A stretch of 63,804 bases of DNA, counting the filler, from a bacterium (GTDB taxonomy: Bacteria > JBBIVP01), in the NCBI GenBank assembly GCA_037439705.1. It is 4 parts of 4 records of this genome, joined end to end, with 100 filler letters (N's around TTAATTAATTAA, not from the genome) between each part and the next. Parts side by side here need not be neighbours in the genome. Positions count along the whole stretch, not along the records: positions 17,597 to 34,973 come from JBBIVP010000021.1; 3 more parts are not named here. One strand, given 5' to 3'. The notes below the pieces were generated by a model. That model worked only from the letters and a program-made list of their open reading frames with translations. It did not search any database and was not told the origin of the DNA. Positions 11,290 to 25,295 of the stretch are shown one piece after another; within the stretch, counting starts at the first letter, position 1; the number at the start of each line of letters is the position of its first letter. The position numbers and the translations under genes were made by a program.

Positions 11290-12591
11290 TCACCACCTTC
11301 CTTCACGCCTTTTAAATTTTTTCAGAATTTCCTTCCTTTTTTCAGGCGGAAGATTGTTGAACTTTTTATAGTTCTCAATTATCTTTCTCTTCTTTTCTGG
11401 TGGAAGATTTTTCCACCTTTCGTATCCCTCAATTATCCTCCTCCTTTCTGGTTCGGGCAATTTCCTGAACCTCTTATAGTTTTTTATGATTTCTCTCCTT
11501 TTTTCAGGAGGCATATTCCTTAACCTCTTCCAGTTTTCAATGATTAAAGCCCTCTTTTCAGGAGGAATTTCCTTCCACCTTCTGTAATTCTTCCTGATCC
11601 TCTCCTTCACTTCATCTGGTAAAGAGTTCCAGATTTTCTTTGCAATTGATAACTTTACAATTCCCCTTGCTTTTCTCAGAACTTCAATTTTATCCTCTCT
11701 AATCCTTCTAAATTTTTCCCGTGCCTCCTCAAGAACTTTAAAAGGAATTTCTTCTGGGACTTTTATTCCCCTATTTGAAAGCCTTTCCCTTATTCTTGAT
11801 GAGGTGTTAAAATTTATATTCATAATGGCAAAATTTCTTCTCACCCTTCTTCTCTCCATTTCAATTAAAAATGATATTTTCTCAAGGTCTCCACCCTCTT
11901 TTGAAATTTTTTCGAAATCATCTATGTATCTTTTCAGGTTTTCAAGACCTTCGTTCAGTTTTTCTTTTATAGTTTCTCTTTTGTTCTGGAGTTTTCTTAA
12001 AAATTCCATAAGTTTCTTATCTGAAATCCTCCTCTTTTTAAGGTATTCCATCCATTCCTCTTCTGAATGGAATGGCTTTCTCCTTGAAATTCCTCCCTCT
12101 TCAGAAATCTCCACGGATTCACCTTCCTTTACCGAATAGGAAGTCCCTTCATCACTTTCTATCTCAATCTCTCCCTCATCAACCTCAAAAACTCCACCTC
12201 CATCTTCAGAAGCGGTAGCAGAGAAGGCAGTACCTCTCACCCCTGCGACAGCAGTCATTGTATGAACCTCATACTTCTCAACTCCACCAAGAATTTTTGA
12301 TGCCCTGTTTATTATCCTTCCGAGAAACAAAAAAATTGATGGTCTCTCTTCGGTTTCTTCAAGGGTTATGCAGGTTGATTGTTTTATCTCAAGTTCACTA
12401 CCATCAAAAAGCAGGAGAAAGGCATAAGAATTTTCTCCTGTGCAAACCATTTCATTCGTTTCAACCTGTGCTCCCTCAGAAAGCATCTCCCTCTTTCCAT
12501 CCTTCACCCTGAATACCTCTCCTTTCACCTTTAGAACCTCAGAGGAACCTGCAAGGGACGAAAGGAATAAAACAAAAATTGCTATCTTCAT
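11290..12591 (-). CDS. Secreted FecR-domain protein fused to DUF3106-like repeats
   Basis: Signal peptide; FecR motifs (TGENSYA, TMTAVAGVRGTAF, VDEGEI); six C-terminal 18-aa repeats. Confidence 0.8.
   Translation of the reverse strand: MKIAIFVLFLSSLAGSSEVLKVKGEVFRVKDGKREMLSEGAQVETNEMVCTGENSYAFLLLFDGSELEIKQSTCITLEETEERPSIFLFLGRIINRASKILGGVEKYEVHTMTAVAGVRGTAFSATASEDGGGVFEVDEGEIEIESDEGTSYSVKEGESVEISEEGGISRRKPFHSEEEWMEYLKKRRISDKKLMEFLRKLQNKRETIKEKLNEGLENLKRYIDDFEKISKEGGDLEKISFLIEMERRRVRRNFAIMNINFNTSSRIRERLSNRGIKVPEEIPFKVLEEAREKFRRIREDKIEVLRKARGIVKLSIAKKIWNSLPDEVKERIRKNYRRWKEIPPEKRALIIENWKRLRNMPPEKRREIIKNYKRFRKLPEPERRRIIEGYERWKNLPPEKKRKIIENYKKFNNLPPEKRKEILKKFKRREGRW
11308..11631 (-). repeat. Six tandem 54-nt (18-aa) coding repeats, W/FxxLPPEKRxxIxxNYxR
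   Basis: WNSLPDEVKERIRKNYRR / WKEIPPEKRALIIENWKR / LRNMPPEKRREIIKNYKR / FRKLPEPERRRIIEGYER / WKNLPPEKKRKIIENYKK / FNNLPPEKRKEILKKFKR. Confidence 0.85.
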
Positions 12592-12803
12592 TCTGAAACC
12601 TCCTGAAAGTATAAAATTTCAAAATTCTCTAAAAACTCCATTTCCTCAAGGAGGTCAAGATTTTCCAACAAATCAAGGTAATTTAAAATTTCAAGAAGTT
12701 CTTCATCGCTGATTTGTATTTCCTCTTTCTTTTTATCCTCCGCATGGGCAGGAAGTAATGAGGAAATAAATAACAGAATTGCAAAAATTTTATCCGCCTT
12801 CAT
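12588..12803 (-). CDS. Small secreted acidic protein
   Basis: MKADKIFAILLFISSLLPAHA signal peptide, then acidic helix LDLLENLDLLEEMEFLENFEIL; overlaps both neighbours. Confidence 0.65.
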   Translation of the reverse strand: MKADKIFAILLFISSLLPAHAEDKKKEEIQISDEELLEILNYLDLLENLDLLEEMEFLENFEILYFQEVSE

Positions 12804-13224
12804 TCTCCTGACCCCAGTCCTCAAGAACATGAAGGTTTTCAAAAACCTCAAGGTTTTCGTAAAACTCAATGTCCTGAGAGATAGTTATTTCGTCCTCAAA
12901 AGAGAGTTCTTCAGAATCTTTTTTAAGGAAAAGGAACATAAACAATGCTGCAACAGCAACAAAACCGCCCGCAACCTTCCATATCCTTCTAATTTTTTTT
13001 CTTCTGGATTCTTCCAGTTTTGCTCTGAGAAGAATGGATTCGGGATTCAGAGAGGTTTCTCTTACCGAAAATGCCTTTAAGAAAATTCTCTTTAATTCCA
13101 TCCATTCCATCCATTCCCTTCTGCATTCCTCACAACTTTCAAGATGAACTCTTATTTCTTCTGGAATAGGTTCTGAGAGAAACTTAAGAATTGATTCTCT
13201 TATTTTCTCACATTCCTTTTTCAT
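12790..13224 (-). CDS. Zinc-binding anti-sigma factor (zf-HC2/ZAS) with one TM helix
   Basis: C...HLESCEEC motif, TM helix, acidic periplasmic tail; directly downstream of ECF sigma. Confidence 0.85.
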   Translation of the reverse strand: MKKECEKIRESILKFLSEPIPEEIRVHLESCEECRREWMEWMELKRIFLKAFSVRETSLNPESILLRAKLEESRRKKIRRIWKVAGGFVAVAALFMFLFLKKDSEELSFEDEITISQDIEFYENLEVFENLHVLEDWGQENEGG

Positions 13225-13765
13225 TTTTTAACCTCTTCATCAATTTTTCCTTTGCCCTGAATACAAGGAGTTTTGCCGAATTATAAGAGCATCCGAGAAC
13301 ATAGGCAATCTCCTCATAGGACATACCCTCAAGGAGTGCAAGCTTGATGGCGGTTCTCTGTTTTTCTGGAAGGCTTTCAATTTCGCTCTTTAAGGTTTCT
13401 ATCCTTTCCCTGTCTTCATCCTCTGATTCCACAGAATAAGATGGCTCAACCACTTCAATATCCTCTATGGAAAGATGGGACATATCCTTATACCTTCTGC
13501 TTTTTAGAAAATTTATGCAGGTATTTCGGGCGATTCTGTAAAGATACGCCCTGAATGAAGAGAACGGTTTATACCTTTTTCTTGAAAGGAAAAGTTTTAT
13601 GAATACATCCTGAACTATGTCCTCTACAATTGAATAGTTGCCAACCATTCCGAAAACGAACTTCATAAGTTTCCCCCTGTATCTTTCAAAAAGGATTCTA
13701 AAGGCATCTTCCTCTCCATCTTTCACCTTCATCATCAATTCCTGTTCCTCCTTTATATTAAACAA
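13208..13765 (-). CDS. ECF RNA polymerase sigma factor
   Basis: EDIVQDVFIKL, FRAYLYRIARN, LPEKQR...GMSYEEIA; GAGGGAG RBS before TTG 13765. Confidence 0.92.
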   Translation of the reverse strand: MFNIKEEQELMMKVKDGEEDAFRILFERYRGKLMKFVFGMVGNYSIVEDIVQDVFIKLFLSRKRYKPFSSFRAYLYRIARNTCINFLKSRRYKDMSHLSIEDIEVVEPSYSVESEDEDRERIETLKSEIESLPEKQRTAIKLALLEGMSYEEIAYVLGCSYNSAKLLVFRAKEKLMKRLKNEKGM

Positions 13766-13784
13766 CTTTACTCCCTCTTTTGTG

Positions 13785-15203
13785 TCATATTGAAAGTTCA
13801 ATACCTCCCTGAATCCTGAAAATGACGCCTTCTTTTGGGAAGAAATCACCCGTAAAGAACAGGTCTCCCTCAGCCATAAGGGTAATGAACCTCCAGAGTT
13901 CTTTTTTCATGATTATATCTGTTTCATACCCATAAATCCTTCCAACCTCTATCTCTCCGAATTTTTTGGGGGAAACAGGAGAAAAGAGAAAGGCTTGAAG
14001 GAGCTCCACTTCCAGAAGATACCTGATTTTCGCTCCGAGAACAATGGATATGTTTCCATAAGAAAATAAGCCTGATGGAGATAGCGAACCTGTTGAAAAA
14101 TGAGCATTTATACCTCCTGAATAAAAAATGGATGTTTCTGTGATATATGGATAAAGCCCCAGAAAGCTCTCATATTCATCGCTAAAGTCAAAAGGACTTT
14201 CATTACCGCTCATGAATAAAAACGAAACAAATGGTTCAAATCTTCTGAATTCCTTATAAAAAACCTTCAAAAAACCTGCATAACCCAAAAAATCAAGATG
14301 GGCTGTTCTTTTCTCACCTGTAAATATATCAACATAATCTACATCAGAATCCCCGAATTCCAGTGAGAATCCCCCTTTTATCAAAAAATTCCAAATGTAT
14401 TTTTTACCGTTCAAATTTAACCAGTACAGATTTCCAGAGGAATCCTTAAATGGCTCCTCAAGTATCCTTTCATAAATCTGTTCCATTCTCCATCTTTTTA
14501 GTGGATCTGCCTCCCTTTTCATTCTGTATTCAAGAATCGGAAGAAGAACCTGCTGGATGGCATTGTTCATCATTGTTCCAAAGTAATTGCTCCTATCGTT
14601 GAAAAAAAGAAATGACATAGATGATCCCTCAGCTAAATTGAGGAGGTAATCAACATTCAAAAATACAATCGGGTCAAAAGAATCAGTTCCGAGAAGTTCT
14701 TCGTACTTCTCAGCCTTGTAAACTCCTCCTGAAAAAACAATTGGTATATCCTTCCCTTCATAAAGGTCAATTCCAAAACTAAATCCTAAAAGGTAATTCT
14801 CTAAGACTATGCCCTCAAAGATGCTCAATTTTCTTTTCCCGGCGTAAAAAAATAGGTATTTAACGGGTTTTATTGCTAAATAGAGCTCATTCATAAAATA
14901 GGCTTTTTTCACCCTGACATCCCAAAAATAATCTTCCAGGGTTGATTCTGAGATCTCCCTTGTATCCATCTGAAAAACAAAATCAAAAAAAGAGGAAGAA
15001 TACGAAAAATCGCCTATGAATATACCCTTAAGGATATATCCATCCTCCATAAATGTTTTTAAAAAAGGAACATCACCTATGCTCTGATATCCTCCCCTTC
15101 CTCCAATTAGAACCCCATACTTAACCCAGCCTGAAGAAAATGAGGGATAGAGCAGAAAGATTAAAAGTGCTATTCTTTTGCTCATCTTTTTAAAGATAAA
15201 CAT
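13785..15203 (-). CDS. Probable outer-membrane beta-barrel (alginate-export-like, tentative)
   Basis: Signal peptide, aromatic-rich strands, YGYETDI and IQGGIELSI C-terminal pattern; start may be 15185. Confidence 0.55.
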   Translation of the reverse strand: MFIFKKMSKRIALLIFLLYPSFSSGWVKYGVLIGGRGGYQSIGDVPFLKTFMEDGYILKGIFIGDFSYSSSFFDFVFQMDTREISESTLEDYFWDVRVKKAYFMNELYLAIKPVKYLFFYAGKRKLSIFEGIVLENYLLGFSFGIDLYEGKDIPIVFSGGVYKAEKYEELLGTDSFDPIVFLNVDYLLNLAEGSSMSFLFFNDRSNYFGTMMNNAIQQVLLPILEYRMKREADPLKRWRMEQIYERILEEPFKDSSGNLYWLNLNGKKYIWNFLIKGGFSLEFGDSDVDYVDIFTGEKRTAHLDFLGYAGFLKVFYKEFRRFEPFVSFLFMSGNESPFDFSDEYESFLGLYPYITETSIFYSGGINAHFSTGSLSPSGLFSYGNISIVLGAKIRYLLEVELLQAFLFSPVSPKKFGEIEVGRIYGYETDIIMKKELWRFITLMAEGDLFFTGDFFPKEGVIFRIQGGIELSI

Positions 15204-17496: not shown

Positions 17497-17596
17497 NNNN
17501 NNNNNNNNNNNNNNNNNNNNNNNNNNNNNNNNNNNNNNNNTTAATTAATTAANNNNNNNNNNNNNNNNNNNNNNNNNNNNNNNNNNNNNNNNNNNN
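17497..17596. other. Artificial contig linker
   Basis: N44-TTAATTAATTAA-N44, stop codons in all six frames. Confidence 0.97.
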
Positions 17597-18143
17597 AATC
17601 TTTTTTTATCAGTCTCAAAATGCCATGCGAACCTTCGCTGTATTTTTCAAACTGGTCGGTATGAATTTTGTAGTCCTTCATATAATTTTCATCCGAATGA
17701 CATCTTGCACATACTTTAGGAACATTAAGGGGATAGACCATTGACTCAGGGTCATCCTTCTTCCTTATTTCATGGACACCGTGACAATCTGTACATCCAG
17801 CCACCTTTTCGTCGTTCTTTTGAAAAAGCAGAATCCCGTGTTCACTGACCAGATAAATCTTGAACTCATCAACAAATTCACCGTAAATCAGCATCTTTTT
17901 TGGGTCTGAATGACAATTCGCACATAGCCTTACTATCTCCTTTTTGCTTTTAAACTTCCGAAAACCATATTTTAAACTCATCGCCTCCGTTGTGAGAACC
18001 GATGGATTACCTCCATGACATTCCATGCATTCAAATAAAGAATAGTGAACACTTTTAGAATACTTATATGCCTCCCCGCCATGACAGACTCTGCAGGAAT
18101 TAACAGGAGAGGCAAATAATAATATGAGTATCATTTCTATCAT
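17597..18143 (-). CDS. Multiheme cytochrome c, N-terminal part (at least 5 hemes)
   Basis: CRVCH, CMECH, CANCH, CTDCH, CARCH; runs into the gap. Confidence 0.88.
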
Positions 18144-19150
18144 TTAACCACTCCTATTATAGCAAGGACAATATATCCGAAAATAAAGATGATGCCCATA
18201 GTTCTGACTATTATATAGAATTTCCTTTTTTCTTCTGGAATGAAAGGCAAAACTATGTAAACAAGACCTGAAAGAATAAGAAAAATTGAAAATAGCAATA
18301 TTCTGGGAAAAATCCACAGGTTTGGAGGAAAAAAAGTATACACCTTATAGAATGGATAGATATACCATGGAATCCAGGTAACTAAAGGAGGATGAGCTAA
18401 ATCCAGCTCTCGAGGAACTTCTCTGGGCATAAATACTGCCAAAGTCATAAGAATAGAGAATATAAGAAACATAATCGTAAAAGAATCATAGAGGAAAACC
18501 TTCAATTTCGTTCCTTTTTCCGAAATTTCTCCCTTCAGCTTCACAACAGCATATATGTGGTAGGACATTAACATAAAAAAGAAAATAAGGAAAAATATTG
18601 TGTGAAACACATAAAATCTCACAAGCGTCGGAGAAGCCACACTCTGCCCTCCTCTTATAAAAAGTTTCAGGTAATCACCAATTACAGGAAACCTGTCAAT
18701 CTCTTCTGTAAGGCTGTTTACACTCCAGAAAACTTCTTGCCCCCAGGTCAAAAATTCTCCTGTCCACTGCCACATCCATATAAATCCAAAACCAATAAGC
18801 CCCGAAATCCATATATTCCTGAACGAATTCTTAAACTTTTTTCTTAAAAACTTAAGAACAAATTGAACGATGATAAACATAATGAACAATTGACCTCCCC
18901 AGTAGTGAATGCTTCTTACAAGCCAGCCGAAAGGAACTTCATTCATCATAAACTTTATAGTATATAAAGCACCATCAGGAGAAGGCTGATAGTAGAGTGA
19001 CATCCCGAGACCTGTGATAAATTGGATAATAAATATTACAAGGAGAGCAATTCCTGTATAATTGTCATAGCTTAATCCAACCCTCCTATCAAGTAATGAT
19101 TTTAACCTCTCACCTGTTTTTTTCAATAAATCTGGGAAATACTCAATCAT
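18140..19150 (-). CDS. Divergent cytochrome b/b6 of a Rieske/cyt b complex
   Basis: QFITG..MSLYYQPS, GWLVRSIHYWG, TLVRFYVFH...H, IPWY in place of PEWY. Confidence 0.88.
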   Translation of the reverse strand: MIEYFPDLLKKTGERLKSLLDRRVGLSYDNYTGIALLVIFIIQFITGLGMSLYYQPSPDGALYTIKFMMNEVPFGWLVRSIHYWGGQLFIMFIIVQFVLKFLRKKFKNSFRNIWISGLIGFGFIWMWQWTGEFLTWGQEVFWSVNSLTEEIDRFPVIGDYLKLFIRGGQSVASPTLVRFYVFHTIFFLIFFFMLMSYHIYAVVKLKGEISEKGTKLKVFLYDSFTIMFLIFSILMTLAVFMPREVPRELDLAHPPLVTWIPWYIYPFYKVYTFFPPNLWIFPRILLFSIFLILSGLVYIVLPFIPEEKRKFYIIVRTMGIIFIFGYIVLAIIGVVK

Positions 19151-19574
19151 GTATCAAAAAAATTTTCCCATCAGATATTTCCAGATCATAAGTTTTTAAA
19201 GGTTTAGGTGGGGGTCCCATTATCACATTCCCATCTACATCAAAAGCAGCGAGGTGACAGGGACACCTTATTTGACCCGCTCTGCTATCCCATGTTAAAA
19301 AACATCCCATGTGTGTACATATTGATGAAACTGCTGAAATCCTTCCCCCGTAGTTTATGAGCATAACTGGATTACCATTAAAAAATACGATTTTTGATTC
19401 CCCCTCTGATATCTCTTTCACATTAGCTACAGGCATCTTTCTTCTTCTTTTCTCAATAACTTCTTTTGGAGGAAAAAGAAATCTAAAAAGGGGAACACTT
19501 ATAATTAATGCACTGATTCCCCCGAAAATACCCAAGAGCCAGTTCAAAAACCTTCTTCTTTCTTTATTGACCAT
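19143..19574 (-). CDS. Rieske 2Fe-2S subunit
   Basis: RRRFL Tat-like anchor, CTHMGC, CPCH, GPPPKPL. Confidence 0.93.
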   Translation of the reverse strand: MVNKERRRFLNWLLGIFGGISALIISVPLFRFLFPPKEVIEKRRRKMPVANVKEISEGESKIVFFNGNPVMLINYGGRISAVSSICTHMGCFLTWDSRAGQIRCPCHLAAFDVDGNVIMGPPPKPLKTYDLEISDGKIFLIHD

Positions 19575-19635
19575 CTACTTCTCAATAGTAAACTTTTTGT
19601 TCATGTCATCCATGTTTTTTCACTTCATAAAATCT

Positions 19636-20877
19636 TCATCCACCTGAAGACCCGTGAGATTGTAGTTTGCCCATAACGATTGGAACTGCAACTTTTACCA
19701 TCATCGTAAAGAGCAAAAAACCGATGGAAAAAATTCCGGCAGTAATACCAAATTCAGTTATAGTCGGGAAGTACTCATAAATTTCTCCTAATGTGTCAGG
19801 GGTTAGTCCGGGCAAAACCAATCCCATACCTTTTTCAATATAAATTCCAAACCATATCAAAAAACATCCTATATTCATAGTTGTGGGATTTTTTCTTGTT
19901 TGAGGGATAATGAAAAGTAGGAAGGCAGATACGCTCATTAAAACACTTAACCAGCTGTATCCCACGAGTTTTTTGTGCTCCCCGATTCCGAAATAAAGAT
20001 ATCTTATATGCAATAGATGATAGGTATCCGAATAAAATTCTTTGTATATTTCGCATATAATGAAGAATAGATTCATCGCCATAGCGTATGCCATAAGCTC
20101 TGCTATCTTCCATATTGCTTCATTCTTTATGTTAAGCTTTGATGTCTTTTGAAGTATCTGCAGTAAGATAAGAAGTATTGCTGGACCCGAGCAGAATGCA
20201 GACGCCAAAAACCTTGGAGCCAGAATTGAGGCATTCCAGAATGGACGCGCGGGAATCCCGTTGTAAATAAAAGCTGTGACTGTATGAATGCTCGCAGCAA
20301 GTGGAATGGAAAAAATCACGAGAGGATTAACAAATTTTCCGCTTGGTTCTTTTCCATAGTATGATTGATAGATGATGTAAGTAGCAATGCTCAAATTGAG
20401 TAAAAGATAAAAAGTCAACACCAGTACATCCCATGCCAGAATGGAATGTAAATTCAAATTTCCGATGAGGGGAATAAGGTGCCAAAAACGGTCAGGACGC
20501 CCTATATCAACAGAAACAAAAAGCAAGCACATCACAATTGCCGATATAGCAAGCAGTTCACCTATAAGAACAATTTCCTTTACGGGTTCCCACTTGTAAA
20601 TGTATGCAGGAATAACGAGCACAACCGCAGATGCAGCAACTCCTACAAGAAATGTGAAATTTCCAATATACAAACCCCACATAACCTGAGAGCGCATCGC
20701 TGTAACGATAAGACCNNNNNNNNNNAGCTGATTGATATAAAAGTATACTCCACAGGCTATTAAAAATAAGAGAAATCCAACCCAGAGATAGTATAAAGAA
20801 GAACCTCGAATTATTAATTTGAAGCTGTATTTCCAGAAGTCAAGAAATTCGTAAATAAACTTTCCTTTCTTATCCAT
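19636..20877 (-). CDS. NrfD/PsrC-family membrane subunit (DsrP/QrcD-like); contains N10 gap
   Basis: WGLYIGNFTFLVGVAA, DIGRPDRFWH, HTVTAF..G..ARPFW; about 10 TM. Confidence 0.88.
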   Translation of the reverse strand: MDKKGKFIYEFLDFWKYSFKLIIRGSSLYYLWVGFLLFLIACGVYFYINQXXXXGLIVTAMRSQVMWGLYIGNFTFLVGVAASAVVLVIPAYIYKWEPVKEIVLIGELLAISAIVMCLLFVSVDIGRPDRFWHLIPLIGNLNLHSILAWDVLVLTFYLLLNLSIATYIIYQSYYGKEPSGKFVNPLVIFSIPLAASIHTVTAFIYNGIPARPFWNASILAPRFLASAFCSGPAILLILLQILQKTSKLNIKNEAIWKIAELMAYAMAMNLFFIICEIYKEFYSDTYHLLHIRYLYFGIGEHKKLVGYSWLSVLMSVSAFLLFIIPQTRKNPTTMNIGCFLIWFGIYIEKGMGLVLPGLTPDTLGEIYEYFPTITEFGITAGIFSIGFLLFTMMVKVAVPIVMGKLQSHGSSGG

Positions 20878-21751
20878 AGTAGTAGAAAAATTTTGGTAAA
20901 GTATTTAATTCTTCTTTGAGGACGAATATGCGCTTATTTTCAATTATGTACCGGATCTCGCTTTTTGGGTCAAGAAGATTTCCAAATTTCCTTGCGCCAA
21001 CAGGGCAGACTTCTACACAGGCAGGATAACGCCCCAATCTAACTCTATGTATACAGAATGTGCACTTCTCAACCACCCCTTTATAACGCGGGCGATTGCC
21101 CAAAAGATGTGTATTTGTATTGATTTCATCCGGTGGGAGATATGGCTCGGTCCAGTTAAAATGCCTTGCTCCATAAGGGCATGCAACCATACAATACCGA
21201 CAGCCTATACACCAGTTGTAATCTATAACCACAATTCCATCTCTTTCTTTCCATGTCGCACCAACAGGACAAACCTTAACACATGGTGGGTTTTCGCACT
21301 GATGACACTGAACTGGCATGTAAAAATGACCTTCCTGCGGAACTTCTTCGGGGTTATAATAAAGGTTTGCTTCTACAAAATCTACTCCTTTTCTTTTATC
21401 CATTTCAAAGACCTTTATCCAGTGGACTGGCATATTGTGTTTTTCGCTTCCACCTCGCGATTGATTATTTTCACGAACACATGCATAAACACATCTACGA
21501 CATCCAATACATCTATTGAGGTCAAGAGCGTAACCAAAAAGCGTTCCTTCCTGCGGTGGTGTGCTGTAAACTTTTATTTCCTTCCCATACTTTTTCCTGT
21601 ATTCTCTTTCAAGACGAGCCAGAGTTTCTTTCAACTCCTCACGATTCATTTCCCGAAGTCTCTTTCGAGGAACAAGTAGTTTACCACAACCAAGCGCACT
21701 TAATGCAAAAAACGAAGTAAGAGTTTTTACGAATTCTCGACGGTTAATCAT
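20870..21751 (-). CDS. NrfC/DmsB-like 4Fe-4S protein (Tat signal, possible lipobox)
   Basis: INRREF...LGC; CIGCRRCVYAC, CHQCENPPCVKVCP, CIGCRYCMVACP, KCTFC...PACVEVCP. Confidence 0.92.
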   Translation of the reverse strand: MINRREFVKTLTSFFALSALGCGKLLVPRKRLREMNREELKETLARLEREYRKKYGKEIKVYSTPPQEGTLFGYALDLNRCIGCRRCVYACVRENNQSRGGSEKHNMPVHWIKVFEMDKRKGVDFVEANLYYNPEEVPQEGHFYMPVQCHQCENPPCVKVCPVGATWKERDGIVVIDYNWCIGCRYCMVACPYGARHFNWTEPYLPPDEINTNTHLLGNRPRYKGVVEKCTFCIHRVRLGRYPACVEVCPVGARKFGNLLDPKSEIRYIIENKRIFVLKEELNTLPKFFYYYG

Positions 21752-22332
21752 CTGATATCCTCCGGTCTTGCTGGTGGCGGTTTTGGTTTCAAAGGTTTAA
21801 AACGTGGAGAATGTGGATTGTGACAGTGGGCGCACAAAAGATATTCCTTCTCACCCTTCCACATTCCTGTGCGTTTTCCATGAACTCCAACTTTCCAATC
21901 TCTATATTGTGGACCATGACATTGTCCACATAATCTGTAAGATTCCTCAAAACCAATTAACTCTCCGTTCGCAAGCCTTAGTTTATCTCTATTTTTAATA
22001 TCGTGGCAATCAAGACACCACCTGTGCTCTTCATCATGCTCGAAAACAATGTCTTCATGAAATTCAAGCTTGCGCCTTTTTGGATTTGGTTCAATCTCGG
22101 CATGACAGGAAGAACATGGGTATATGCCTTCAGAAAGAGGTGGCGGAGGAACTGGAAATTGTTCTTTCTTTTCCTTTTCTTCTTTCTGAATCGGTATAAG
22201 CCCGCGTTCCTGAGGAGGAAGAGGAGGATTCTCTGCATGAAATGGGTCTACTCCCTCTATTGCCCTGTGCTCCTTTTCGCATGCTGTCGGTAAAACCAGA
22301 AAGATAATGGCAAATAACCATCTGAGCATCAC
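21748..22332 (-). CDS. Tetraheme cytochrome c lipoprotein
   Basis: LPTAC lipobox; CSSCH, CLDCH, CGQCH, CAHCH. Confidence 0.88.
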   Translation of the reverse strand: MMLRWLFAIIFLVLPTACEKEHRAIEGVDPFHAENPPLPPQERGLIPIQKEEKEKKEQFPVPPPPLSEGIYPCSSCHAEIEPNPKRRKLEFHEDIVFEHDEEHRWCLDCHDIKNRDKLRLANGELIGFEESYRLCGQCHGPQYRDWKVGVHGKRTGMWKGEKEYLLCAHCHNPHSPRFKPLKPKPPPARPEDIR

Positions 22333-22334
22333 TT

Positions 22335-23543
22335 TTATCCTCCGTTTTCAATACTTCTCAACTCCATCCAGGGTGGGAGAATTTTTGTAAGGATATAAAG
22401 AATAAGGAAAGGAAGGACAAGAAATAGTAAGGCGACCAATAATCCTTCAACTCCCAAAAGTTCCATTTTGTAAACAGTCAAACCCCTGAAGCTTTTTGAA
22501 AAGAGTTGACCCCCTATAACCACATTCCACCTTGTAGCAAAAATACCAATCTGAACCAAAATGGCAACTATGAAATATAGAAGTCTTCTCAACTCATCCG
22601 GTGGGGTGAATATCTTGATTAAAATAAGAACTGTTAAAGGAAAAATTGTCCCTATAAGTATCTGAATCACAACAAGGCTTATAAACAGTCTTGAGGTAAC
22701 AAGCTTTGAAAGGATATGTATTGATTCCTCTGCCTGATAAAGCCTGTGTATAAAGTCAAGCATTTCAAGAGAGAAATCAACTATTATTGAATACAATATG
22801 AAATCAGCAAGCCTGTCCACACACTTCATATCAACTTCTTTCCTGCGAAGAAGAGTAATTAAAATGTAAAGGAAAAGAACAAGTGCTATTCCCGAAACAA
22901 TAGCGGAAAATAGAAAAACTACCGGCATTAAAACACTGCTCCACCACGGATTGGCTTTAACTGACCCGAATATAAAACCTACATATCCGTGCAGTAAAAA
23001 AGCAGAAGGAATACCAATTATGGTTATCACCTTCACTGTTTTTTTATCCAGATTTACTGCAGATGGCGAAACATCTGTGGTAAAAAGAGTAATCGCCCTA
23101 TGAATGAATTTTCTCAATCCACTCTCATTCTGAGCCCACATTATAAGGTCCTTCCTGTAATCAAACCACATCTCAAGAAGTAAAACAACCATAAGATACC
23201 ACAGATAAACTATCCCGTACATCTACATAGGAGTACGAAGGTGGGGTGTGAGGAAAATTTCTATTGAGCGTGCTGGATGACCGAGATGGGCAAGAAGCGG
23301 AAGAGGAGCAACAAGTAAAAATGCTAAAGCAGTAAGCAATGAAAGTCTGTAGGTTGGAGCCACATCCTTAACATTGAAGACCTTGACAAGAGAGGCAAGT
23401 ATAAATGCTCCTGCAACAAGTCCTGTAATGTAGGGATAAACAACTATCAATATACTCCAGTGAAGTTCAATTTCGTTAGGATATATAAATCCTGTAATGT
23501 GCTGAAGTGCTGAAGAAAGTTGTTCTACAAGATGCTCCATCAC
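22335..23543 (-). CDS. NrfD/PsrC-family membrane subunit interrupted by in-frame TAG at 23223-23225
   Basis: ORFs 23223-23543 and 22335-23222 are in one frame; WSILIVVYPYITGLVAG, HLGHP, LHGYVGFIFG, RWNVVIGGQ. Confidence 0.85.
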
Positions 23544-24277
23544 CTTACCTCTCCATCAAGATTGGCATAAAAAACCTTCGGTTCTGTATTCATACCAGGT
23601 TTTAACACATGTATTTCGTTCATCCTCATAAACCTCACAAGGGGACTGCTTCTTTTAGTTAAATCTCCAAAGACCCTCGCATGTGTTGGACACACTTCAA
23701 CACAAGCAGGTTTCAAACCTTTCGTTATTCTGTGGTAGCAGAATGTGCACTTGTCCGCCACCCTTTTTTCAGGATGAAGGTATCTTGCTCCATAGGGACA
23801 TGCCTGAATACAGTATCTGCAGCCAATACAGTAATCAGGATCTACAAGAATTACACCCTCAGGACTCTTAAATGTTGCACCTACAGGACAAACCTGAACA
23901 CAGGGCGGATTATCACATTGATTGCAAAGTTTCGGAACAAAAAAACTTCTTAGAATCTGTTTTTCTCTCTTTTCAACAGAATAAGGACTTTTCGTACTTC
24001 TATCTAAGGTTTCCACTTCTACTTCACCATCTTTATAAATGGTATACCTCTCAACCCATGTTCTGTAAAAGAAAGGATATTTTGGCACATTATTTTCCAG
24101 CTTACATGCCTCAACACATTTTCCACATCCGACACATCTCTTTATGTATATTCCCATCCCATACCGGGGAGAGCGGTCGTTTTCTTTACTCATCCTGGGT
24201 AACGCTAATACCTCCTTTCCACTGAGGAAAAGAACTGCCAAACCAAATGTATCCCTTATAAAGTTCCTGCGATTCAT
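23540..24277 (-). CDS. NrfC-like 4Fe-4S protein (Tat signal)
   Basis: MNRRNF; four Cys groups including FVPKLCNQCDNPPCVQVCP and KCTFC. Confidence 0.92.
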   Translation of the reverse strand: MNRRNFIRDTFGLAVLFLSGKEVLALPRMSKENDRSPRYGMGIYIKRCVGCGKCVEACKLENNVPKYPFFYRTWVERYTIYKDGEVEVETLDRSTKSPYSVEKREKQILRSFFVPKLCNQCDNPPCVQVCPVGATFKSPEGVILVDPDYCIGCRYCIQACPYGARYLHPEKRVADKCTFCYHRITKGLKPACVEVCPTHARVFGDLTKRSSPLVRFMRMNEIHVLKPGMNTEPKVFYANLDGEVR

Positions 24278-24280
24278 CCT

Positions 24281-25033
24281 TTAGCCTCCTTCAGGAGAAT
24301 GTGGATAATGACATTCCCAGCATAGGTATCCTTCAGAATGAGAATCAACCTCTATTTTTGGAATATAATCTGGAGTTTTTGCAGTCTCCGAGTGACACCT
24401 TTCACACACATCAGTGTTTGTAGGTTTTGTCGGACGCTGAGACCTCGGGTCAAATTTATGATGTGAAGGCGTTTTATGACATACCGTGCATTCAAGGGAA
24501 GCATGGGGTGAAATAGATTTCATACTTGAAATAGTCCTGTGACACACCTGACAATCTGTAGGAGGATGCGGTGGAGTTGGATCGTGCGGATTGTGACACT
24601 CCGTGCACTGTTTAGGGGGATTGTGCAGATAAGGGTCAACCTGCGGGAATCCAGTGGGACGAGATACAATATATTCATGACATTTCAAACACTCCTCTCT
24701 CTTTCGGGGTATAATTATCTCTCCTTCTCCTTCTGCATGTTTCAATCCCGGACCATGACAGGTTTCACATGAAAGCAGTTTATGATAAGAGTTTTCTATT
24801 TTTGATACCTCTTCTTCATGACATTCCTCACACTTCTCCCTGCCAGCATAAACAAGAGGCTTATTTTTTTCGTTAACAAGTGCGCTGGTTCTGTAATGCC
24901 CGAGCTCTCCGAAGTCTGATGGAATAAATTGCTCTCTCAAAAAAATCACGGTTAAAAATCCACCTATTATTAAGATTCCGAGCCTTCTGTACTGCTCTGG
25001 TATCTTTTTCCAGATTTTAAGCGGGGTAACCAA
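24281..25033 (-). CDS. Membrane-anchored octaheme cytochrome c
   Basis: N-terminal TM; CEECH, CETCH, CLKCH, CTECH, CQVCH, CTVCH, CERCH, CWECH; AAGGAGG RBS before TTG. Confidence 0.88.
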   Translation of the reverse strand: MVTPLKIWKKIPEQYRRLGILIIGGFLTVIFLREQFIPSDFGELGHYRTSALVNEKNKPLVYAGREKCEECHEEEVSKIENSYHKLLSCETCHGPGLKHAEGEGEIIIPRKREECLKCHEYIVSRPTGFPQVDPYLHNPPKQCTECHNPHDPTPPHPPTDCQVCHRTISSMKSISPHASLECTVCHKTPSHHKFDPRSQRPTKPTNTDVCERCHSETAKTPDYIPKIEVDSHSEGYLCWECHYPHSPEGG

Positions 25034-25295
25034 ATTCTGCCTCCTTCACCAATCCTTCCTCCCACCGGGGTGAATTTTGAAACATTCCTTTTCCCTTCGC
25101 TTCTAAAAATTCAAAATCTCTTACCTTTTTTGCTCTATCATTCACTATAAATTCTCCTCTACCTGAGTCCTCAATCGTTGTTTTTAATTTTCTAAATCAG
25201 ATTAATTTTGTCAAGAAAAATGAGAAACTTTGATTTTATCAGATTTATCAATAAAATGGTTTTTTATGAAATAAAATTGTAGTAAAATTCAAAAA

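Follow-up and report, generated by a model that had tools for sequence, protein, structure and literature searches.

A ten-gene bacterial operon combining two NrfCD modules with a Rieske protein and a degenerate cytochrome b: a putative bank of quinol:cytochrome c oxidoreductases

The window analysed here is a 63,804-nucleotide stretch of four contigs, joined by N-linkers, from the bacterial genome assembly GCA_037439705.1 (genome G000 below; 88% complete, reported contamination 1.3%). Position 17597 is the first base of contig G000:C21, and from there to position 25033, on the minus strand, runs most of a respiratory operon in which two pairs of iron-sulfur (NrfC) and membrane (NrfD) proteins, here termed modules 1 and 2, accompany a Rieske protein, a divergent cytochrome b (cyt b*) and multiheme cytochromes c. 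The operon is confirmed as a real, tightly packed set of ten genes without a catalytic subunit. Rieske/cytochrome b complexes and NrfD modules tend to be treated as alternatives to one another, yet in this case deeply separated lineages keep the two together. On the reading that is favoured, with somewhat more belief than doubt, the operon would encode a bank of co-expressed, separate quinol:cytochrome c modules feeding unlinked reductases. Its unusual part is the degenerate yet maintained cyt b* tied to module 1; the remainder is a patchwork of known modules.

Organization and completion of the operon

Open reading frame (ORF) listing and family scans bore out the minus-strand order given by an earlier sequence-only reading of this DNA: octaheme cytochrome c, NrfC, NrfD, tetraheme lipoprotein, NrfC, NrfD, Rieske protein, cytochrome b and a cut multiheme cytochrome c. 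Spacing between the genes ranges from -8 to +3 nt, with a sole exception of 61 nt ahead of the Rieske gene, and GC content at third codon positions (GC3) is uniform (0.29-0.38). The span contains 17 CxxCH motifs (8+4+5) and no molybdopterin or hydrogenase gene. The cut gene (17597-18143, minus strand; identified by ORF and CxxCH count) encodes the N-terminal part of a nonaheme cytochrome c with five CxxCH motifs and continues on contig C19, the recovery of which the earlier reading had proposed. There, homology to 9-heme ORFs places its remaining four hemes and a C-terminal membrane helix at G000:C19:2-628, followed by an 11-heme NapC/NirT-like cytochrome with a NapC/NirT-type N-terminus (G000:C19:631-2019) and then by a gene on the opposite strand. 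The ends of C21 and C19 seem to lie about 1 base apart, in frame, the join being based on homology rather than on reads. Because in genome G023 and in metagenomic locus L107 a single 9-heme ORF spans both nonaheme parts and the same 11-heme gene comes next (70-74% identity), the complete operon is reconstructed as ten co-oriented, closely spaced genes with 32 CxxCH motifs (8+4+9+11), plus one possible CX4CH. The catalytic subunit that the earlier reading did not see is still absent from the recovered end. The 11-heme protein scored 61 bits against the NrfH model, under its cut-off of 134, and its first heme has the form CxxCHxM, the pattern of NrfH and CymA; it may provide a further quinol site.

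Conservation of the core and of the added cassette

Cyt b* loci with gene context are known from the window, G023 (97% complete), L106 and L107, the latter two being two of the seven loci from a metagenome scan. The core order of octaheme, NrfC and NrfD1, Rieske, cyt b*, 9-heme and 11-heme genes is kept in all four. Module 2 is present in the window only, where it follows NrfD1 and precedes the Rieske gene. In L106 and L107 the position behind NrfD1 is taken by subunit IV and another 9-heme gene, with a canonical Rieske protein and cytochrome b6 encoded ahead of module 1. G023 has a single NrfD, that of module 1, and yielded no molybdopterin-enzyme match, so the core appears to need no linked molybdenum partner. 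By gene content the operon is a mosaic of an old core and a separate three-gene cassette that joins this core in the window genome alone, the double-NrfD trait being a lineage-specific addition. The hybrid of NrfCD and Rieske/cytochrome b elements envisaged by the sequence-only reading survives in part: bc-type genes are co-conserved with module 1 (4/4 loci), whereas a fixed supercomplex with three membrane subunits is not supported, given that module 2 is absent from three of the four loci and that G023 has one NrfD.

NrfD1 matches were obtained in 31 of 401 genomes, and wide regions were examined for 20 of the 33 places, several of which are short contigs and three of whose genomes belong to one family. 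Of the 11 loci at 54-71% identity, five have Rieske and canonical four-His cytochrome b genes in the region of NrfD1 and the other six have none. The order and orientation of these genes vary from locus to locus, one set being 10 kb off and one divergent; bc genes are near NrfD1 in 0/9 loci at 44-47% identity. Module 1 is, as far as this sample suggests, repeatedly and not obligately found near bc genes.

G000 and G023 share the operon core at 43-77% protein identity; among the surveyed genomes, G023 is alone in its phylum and G000 has no relative closer than its domain. L106 (4021-13556) and L107 (742-10262) each combine canonical and degenerate Rieske/cytochrome b units within one operon, making them candidates for an asymmetric bc heterodimer.

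The Rieske protein and cyt b*

The Rieske [2Fe-2S] protein (19143-19574, minus strand; PF00355, E 4e-17) has a twin-arginine translocation (Tat) anchor and both ligand boxes intact, and its ligands are invariant across all eight aligned sequences. It lacks the potential-raising Ser and Tyr. Alignment of cyt b* (18140-19150, minus strand) shows that the heme bL ligands H82 and H183 are kept, that position 96 is Gln, that the quinol oxidation (Qo) motif reads IPWY and that RxPRE is lost; the four heme His (82, 96, 183, 197) are hence not all present. A structure model with a pLDDT of 67 was recognized by Foldseek as a cytochrome b fold (TM ~0.6-0.75).

Five distinct members (window, G023, L106, L107 and P0002) form the cyt b* clade, which sits on a long stem with an SH-aLRT of 100 in a quick tree. 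All five keep the heme bL ligands and lack RxPRE, GYLLPW and the canonical PEWY; the Qo motif of the relatives is VEWY, ISWY or VFWF (twice), with the Trp retained. The helix-B heme bH His (96) is replaced by Gln in the window, G023 and P0002 and is His in L106 and L107, and P0002 additionally lacks the helix-D bH His. By comparison, 131 of 142 other aligned cytochromes b have His96 (11 do not) and 129 have all four His. The clade is tiny, since a profile search of 1.84 billion representatives gave few high-scoring matches: three above 500 bits, all of them in the query alignment or close to it, then two at 266-275 bits, with no other match exceeding 183. A dN/dS of ~0.12 between L106 and L107 points to purifying selection rather than decay, although cyt b* changes more quickly than the adjacent genes do (38-44% identity across lineages vs 49-77%).

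Loss of either heme is reported to abolish transmembrane transfer and leave the Q-cycle incomplete (PMC4122944), and cytochromes b lacking the bH His have been described before (PMC5600118; PMC4122944). Because the helix-B bH His and PEWY are missing, cyt b* is predicted to be unable to run a normal Q-cycle in the window genome. Its Qo site may still work, since APWY, the motif of an APWY clade, is listed as a natural variant (PMC4122944). As a maintained clade without Q-cycle features, cyt b* offers a testable case for a one-heme role of a bc-family cytochrome b.

Two other sets of cytochromes b were encountered. P0163, P0172, P0182, P0183, P0233 and P0256 form a separate, well-supported clade in which the helix-B bH position is Arg, the His having been lost independently. 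G000 itself encodes a second, canonical Rieske/cytochrome b pair with four His and PEWY on contig C2 (L020:5867-8390, minus strand), directly followed by a HAO-family octaheme protein (PF13447; E 1e-13 to the hydrazine dehydrogenase model, well short of its cut-off), a layout reminiscent of anammox bc complexes.

The two NrfCD modules

Module 1 begins with a membrane-anchored octaheme cytochrome c (24281-25033, minus strand; eight CxxCH motifs, one N-terminal hydrophobic segment). Both of its halves align to a 162-aa Desulfuromonadales tetraheme protein (34% over 148 aa and 28% over 90 aa), and it looks like a doubled tetraheme of the size of CbcS. The next gene (23540-24277, minus strand) encodes a NrfC/TtrB-like iron-sulfur protein with a twin-arginine signal and 16 Cys (Pfam Fer4_11), for which the best NCBIfam matches were TtrB (215 bits, cut-off 416) and DsrO (187 bits, cut-off 200). 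NrfD1 (22335-23543, minus strand; ~8 membrane helices) is 75-77% identical to intact homologs and is split by an in-frame TAG at 23223-23225, with PF03916 matching both pieces. Of sequencing runs, only X1 (share 0.07) was listed for this genome, and no RNA run; X1 contains the same organism at low depth, the four listed pieces having 0-1 differences. One further X1 contig of 226 bases, at a depth of 2.8, is the evidence that bears on the TAG: it differs from the window at seven bases, all within 23211-23234, and carries the family consensus there with no stop. The TAG is probably an assembly error, because a chance error is unlikely to restore consensus at five codons in that contig. Amber read-through was rejected, as no PylS match was found in G000 at its 88% completeness and the frame is open in the X1 contig.

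Module 2 consists of a tetraheme cytochrome c lipoprotein (21748-22332, minus strand; four CxxCH motifs, lipobox-like signal), a DsrO-like iron-sulfur protein (20870-21751, minus strand; twin-arginine signal, 17 Cys; DsrO model 193 bits, cut-off 200) that is 39% identical to the NrfC of module 1, and the DsrP-like NrfD2 (19636-20877, minus strand; DsrP model 364.8 bits, cut-off 350), which contains a 10-N scaffold gap at 20716-20725. The tetraheme protein has 5,676 homologous clusters, and a GTDB scan confirmed 205 relatives, the best 80 of which define the loci counted here and below. NrfC is next after the tetraheme gene in 79 of these loci and NrfD in 78, all misses being at contig ends. 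Rieske or cytochrome b genes are near the cassette in 1/80, and in 0/43 with long flanks; a module 1-type NrfD is downstream of it in 14/80 and upstream in 0/80. The closest relative of NrfD2 (76% identity; L023) is the sole NrfD of the complete chromosome G401, where three cytochrome b genes lie 0.58-1.9 Mb from the cassette. Module 2 thus appears to be a widespread stand-alone cassette, mobile between operons; such a DsrOP-like-tetraheme cassette has been discussed chiefly for cable bacteria.

Loci L024-L028, L032, L034, L039, L041, L049, L062, L063, L073 and L224 share a recurrent arrangement of tetraheme, DsrO-like and DsrP-like genes followed by a module 1-type NrfC and NrfD. In these conserved tandem loci, mostly from Desulfuromonadales, the second module usually has its own tetraheme gene, and bc genes are absent.

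The phylogeny suggested by the sequence-only reading was run twice, as a quick tree of 107 rows and as a careful one of 29 rows. NrfD1 clusters with NrfDs of multiheme-NrfC-NrfD cassettes, including those of the Desulfuromonadales tetraheme-NrfC-NrfD type (100/100), and NrfD2 falls within a tetraheme-linked clade (90/89) that is sister to canonical DsrP. The two thus belong to distant clades, each with its own NrfC, and neither is an ActC/ActF, QrcD or HmcC protein: they join none of the ActC-like (a clade labelled from gene context), QrcD or HmcC/HybB rows. A tree constraining NrfD2 with four canonical DsrP was rejected (p-AU 9e-9), for a group picked after the first tree had been viewed. The QrcD model scored 30.8 bits on NrfD2 against a cut-off of 570, and an intact NrfD1 homolog had no QrcD or HmcC match at E 1e-5. 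Sequence searches of the PDB returned nothing for NrfD1 and only weak ActC matches for NrfD2, a plasmid search returned only haloarchaeal NrfDs, and atlas searches gave only generic family names.

NrfD/NrfC pairs exchange electrons between a periplasmic-side quinone and four Fe-S clusters, and ActF, which has no quinone site, is presented as the only second NrfD in any complex (PMC8076601). Aligned against Table 2 of the same source, all four quinone-site residues of DsrP1 are present in NrfD2. Of those in E. coli NrfD, NrfD1 has retained the Tyr, the His and the second Tyr; the Ser is seen in intact homologs and the Thr is lacking. Both NrfDs keep quinone-site residues, and the rule derived from ActF does not fit here.

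Comparison with known systems

Module 1 has its nearest architectural counterpart in Cbc4 of Geobacter sulfurreducens (CbcSTU, GSU0068-0070), a proposed menaquinol:cytochrome c oxidoreductase that would hand electrons to periplasmic cytochromes and likewise joins an anchored multiheme cytochrome c, a protein with four [4Fe-4S] clusters and an NrfD-type protein without a catalytic subunit (bioRxiv 10.1101/2025.04.14.648717). CbcS is, however, a tetraheme protein of ~160 aa rather than an octaheme, and module 1 is embedded with a second module and the Rieske/cyt b* unit. The likeness is one of architecture, no G. sulfurreducens protein being named among the 120 matches listed; by analogy, the operon may work like the Geobacter Cbc-type quinol:cytochrome c oxidoreductases. 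Module 2 resembles the DsrOhPh-tetrahaem locus of cable bacteria and other organisms, in which tetrahaem, DsrO-like and DsrP-like proteins are encoded apart from dsrMKJ, the DsrP-like protein forms a clade beside canonical DsrP, and organisms without Dsr metabolism are included (PMC13047784). In contrast to that locus, as far as its published architecture rather than cable-bacterial sequence allows the comparison, module 2 lies inside a larger operon and no TMH1 gene was seen.

DsrMKJOP pairs a cytochrome b with a disabled quinol site with an NrfD-type quinol oxidase (bioRxiv 10.64898/2026.08.25.746951). NrfD2 also exceeds the NCBIfam DsrP cut-off, though the constrained DsrP grouping is rejected, and cyt b* belongs to the bc family whereas DsrM belongs to the NarI family. 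In G000, at 88% completeness, DsrM had no match, the DsrK domain matched only partially and on other contigs, and no DsrA was over the cut-off; the operon contains no triheme DsrJ. Alternative complex III (ACIII; ActABCDEF) and QrcABCD share the design of NrfD, Fe-S and multiheme proteins for exchange between quinol and cytochrome c. No ActB/QrcB, ActD or ActE is encoded in the operon, and an ActB-like query matched only an unlinked molybdenum enzyme on contig C100; unlike in ACIII, each of the two NrfDs retains quinone-site residues and comes with an Fe-S partner of its own. By these comparisons the operon is none of ACIII, Qrc or DsrMKJOP, and its bc unit lacks the full set of four His that a Q-cycling complex requires.

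Replacement of heme ligands similar to that in cyt b* is described for subfamily K cytochromes b of cyanobacteria, in which the helix-2 heme His is changed to Glu or Gln and function is obscure (PMC5600118), and for Pyrobaculum cytochromes b (PMC4122944). Those proteins are short and b6-like or archaeal, and the accounts given in the two papers link them to neither NrfCD nor multiheme cytochromes. The 'three contiguous operons' of Candidatus Polytropus marinifundus likewise bring a bc1-like Rieske/cytochrome b, two further membrane complexes and multiheme cytochromes into adjacency; unlike here, the organism is archaeal, a Q-cycling bc complex is suggested, NrfD is unnamed and the description of the operons mentions no degenerate cytochrome b (Boyd et al. 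2019, PMC6474303). In Methanoperedenaceae, the NrfCD and Rieske/cytochrome b kinds are reported as separate clusters. As to whether the cluster matches a described complex, its modules are known and similar islands are in print, but searches of the open literature, subscription papers and bioRxiv supplements aside, found neither this operon nor the cyt b* clade described.

Proposed function and alternative explanations

The operon would encode a bank of co-expressed, membrane-bound, largely separate quinol:cytochrome c oxidoreductase modules that drain the (mena)quinol pool into ~32 anchored hemes on the periplasmic face, from which terminal reductases encoded elsewhere would take electrons. 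Each NrfD is predicted to oxidize quinol at a periplasmic site, releasing protons outside, and to deliver the electrons by way of four Fe-S clusters to the cytochrome of its own module. In this genome no transmembrane electron movement is expected in the Rieske/cyt b*/nonaheme unit, which may act as a non-Q-cycling branch with heme bL only or as a scaffold relay, and the 11-heme protein as a further quinol site or a shared collector. Parallel modules could let the cell match acceptors that differ in potential; in Geobacter, such modules are described as branching according to potential (PMC13591261), and SirCD can stand in for CymA as a general quinol dehydrogenase (PMC11434368). Separate modules are preferred because the core persists in all four cyt b* loci and module 2 in only one; because the tetraheme cassette stands alone, with bc genes near it in a single locus of the 80 and, in G401, one NrfD with its cytochrome b genes far away; because module 1 is the only NrfD module of G023 and is bc-less in six of 11 close loci; and because the two NrfDs, from distant clades, keep quinone-site residues.

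Several observations weigh against this reading. Retention of the core order and of cyt b* across deep lineages would fit a physical partnership better than co-regulation, as would the presence of canonical Rieske/cytochrome b genes near module 1 in 5/11 further close loci, and the position of module 1 between cytochrome b6 and subunit IV in L106 and L107 suggests integration. The direction of electron flow and the action of the modules are predictions from genes, and the tie to particular reductases consists of co-occurrence and of adjacency in the single locus L106.

A doubtful though serious alternative is that module 1 forms one physical complex with the Rieske protein, cyt b* and the nonaheme, in which NrfD1 would be the quinol site, cyt b* a scaffold or one-heme relay and module 2 optional. 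In its favour, module 1 and the Rieske/cyt b* unit are co-conserved in 4/4 cyt b* loci, cyt b* lacks PEWY and RxPRE in 5/5 members and the bH His in 3/5 and yet evolves at a dN/dS of ~0.12, and there is a precedent in which the quinol site of DsrM is blocked and DsrP oxidizes quinol (bioRxiv 10.64898/2026.08.25.746951). Against this, some loci with module 1 have no bc genes, and others place it beside canonical four-His cytochromes b whose order and orientation vary; cyt b* is known with context from four loci only; and xPWY is a natural Qo variant (the APWY clade; PMC4122944), so the Qo site of cyt b* may function. The same limited credence extends to a version that includes the 11-heme protein, an undescribed complex in which NrfD would have taken over quinol chemistry from a cytochrome b that gave up the Q-cycle, its Qo and Qi motifs eroded and heme bH gone in some lineages, and into which the second NrfCD could plug. 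If true, a complex of NrfCD1, Rieske and cyt b* would be a natural hybrid of two alternative complex III designs and would raise the question of NrfD replacing the quinol site of a cytochrome b, as lately shown for DsrP and DsrM; if the modules are only co-regulated, the operon would be one more respiratory island like those of Geobacter or Polytropus. The obligate supercomplex of the sequence-only reading, in which NrfD1, NrfD2 and cytochrome b would all three interact with quinone and feed one heme wire, is considered very unlikely. The ten genes are tightly packed in one orientation, and modules 1 and 2 occur together in 14/80 tetraheme loci and in genome G122 (L224). However, module 2 is missing from three of four cyt b* loci, the full arrangement was seen in the window genome only among all loci examined, the 14 double-module loci have the reversed order and no bc genes, and both NrfDs, unlike the ActC/ActF pair, come with separate Fe-S partners and with a quinone site each.

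Operation in the uptake direction, with periplasmic or external donors reducing menaquinone through the hemes as in Qrc, is judged unlikely. It would be compatible with NrfD modules operating in either direction (PMC8076601 Table 1) and with the tie of Pro at the second Qo position to reverse-running complexes (PMC4122944). Other cyt b* members lack that Pro (VEWY, ISWY, VFWF), however, and the genome resembles that of an organic-acid oxidizer, with 12 acyl-CoA dehydrogenase-like matches. Its one clear NiFe hydrogenase (L123, G000:C33) appears to be cytoplasmic. Least credible of all is an artefact or decay, in which module 1 would be a pseudogene that module 2 is displacing, or mis-assembly would have brought module 2 to this place. 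The in-frame TAG in NrfD1, the scaffold gap inside NrfD2 and the fact that none of the X1 pieces listed spans either module 2 junction are consistent with this, but the frame is open with consensus residues in the X1 contig, both junctions are gap-free with operon-like spacing, GC3 is uniform and reported contamination is low.

Candidate partners and neighbouring genes

Candidate customers of the operon in G000 are a nitric oxide (NO) reductase, a Tat-exported PhsA/ArrA-like molybdoenzyme lacking a membrane anchor of its own, and an HAO-family octaheme. The NO-reductase-type heme-copper protein (L119:7516-8523, G000:C88) has an HLWVEG motif, which points to an NO reductase; cytochrome bd had no match in G000. 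The molybdoenzyme cluster (L114:4228-7858, G000:C100, and L021:1-3200, G000:C6) encodes the exported enzyme, an Fe-S subunit and a diheme lipoprotein, and onward a TorD-like chaperone, a 415-aa porin-like protein, an octaheme protein and moaA, with no NrfD anchor. It is possibly an outer-membrane reductase; the porin-like protein had no Pfam match and a structure model with a pLDDT of 30, and no MtrB_PioB match was found in G000. In L106, the tail of a PhsA/ArrA-like molybdoenzyme cluster lies directly upstream of the operon.

Contig C139 of G000 (L002:1-5661) encodes an 8-heme protein, an FdnI-like cytochrome b, a second such pair and a 16-heme paralog of the 11-heme protein, and a similar cluster lies 2.4 kb downstream of the operon in L106 (15914-20839). 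In the window, an artificial N-linker (17497-17596, no strand) separates contigs C20 and C21. Promoter-like sites in the region number 21 against a shuffle mean of 21.3, no terminator-like site was found in the 61-nt gap before the Rieske gene, and neither the promoter nor the terminator scan rose above chance overall; an intergenic site 5' of the operon (25187-25214, minus strand), with a perfect -35 hexamer and 10/12 matches, is a promoter candidate by position only. Elsewhere in the window, positions 11290-13849 encode an extracytoplasmic function (ECF) sigma factor, an anti-sigma-like protein and a FecR-like protein with a C-terminal repeat, as named from their translations.

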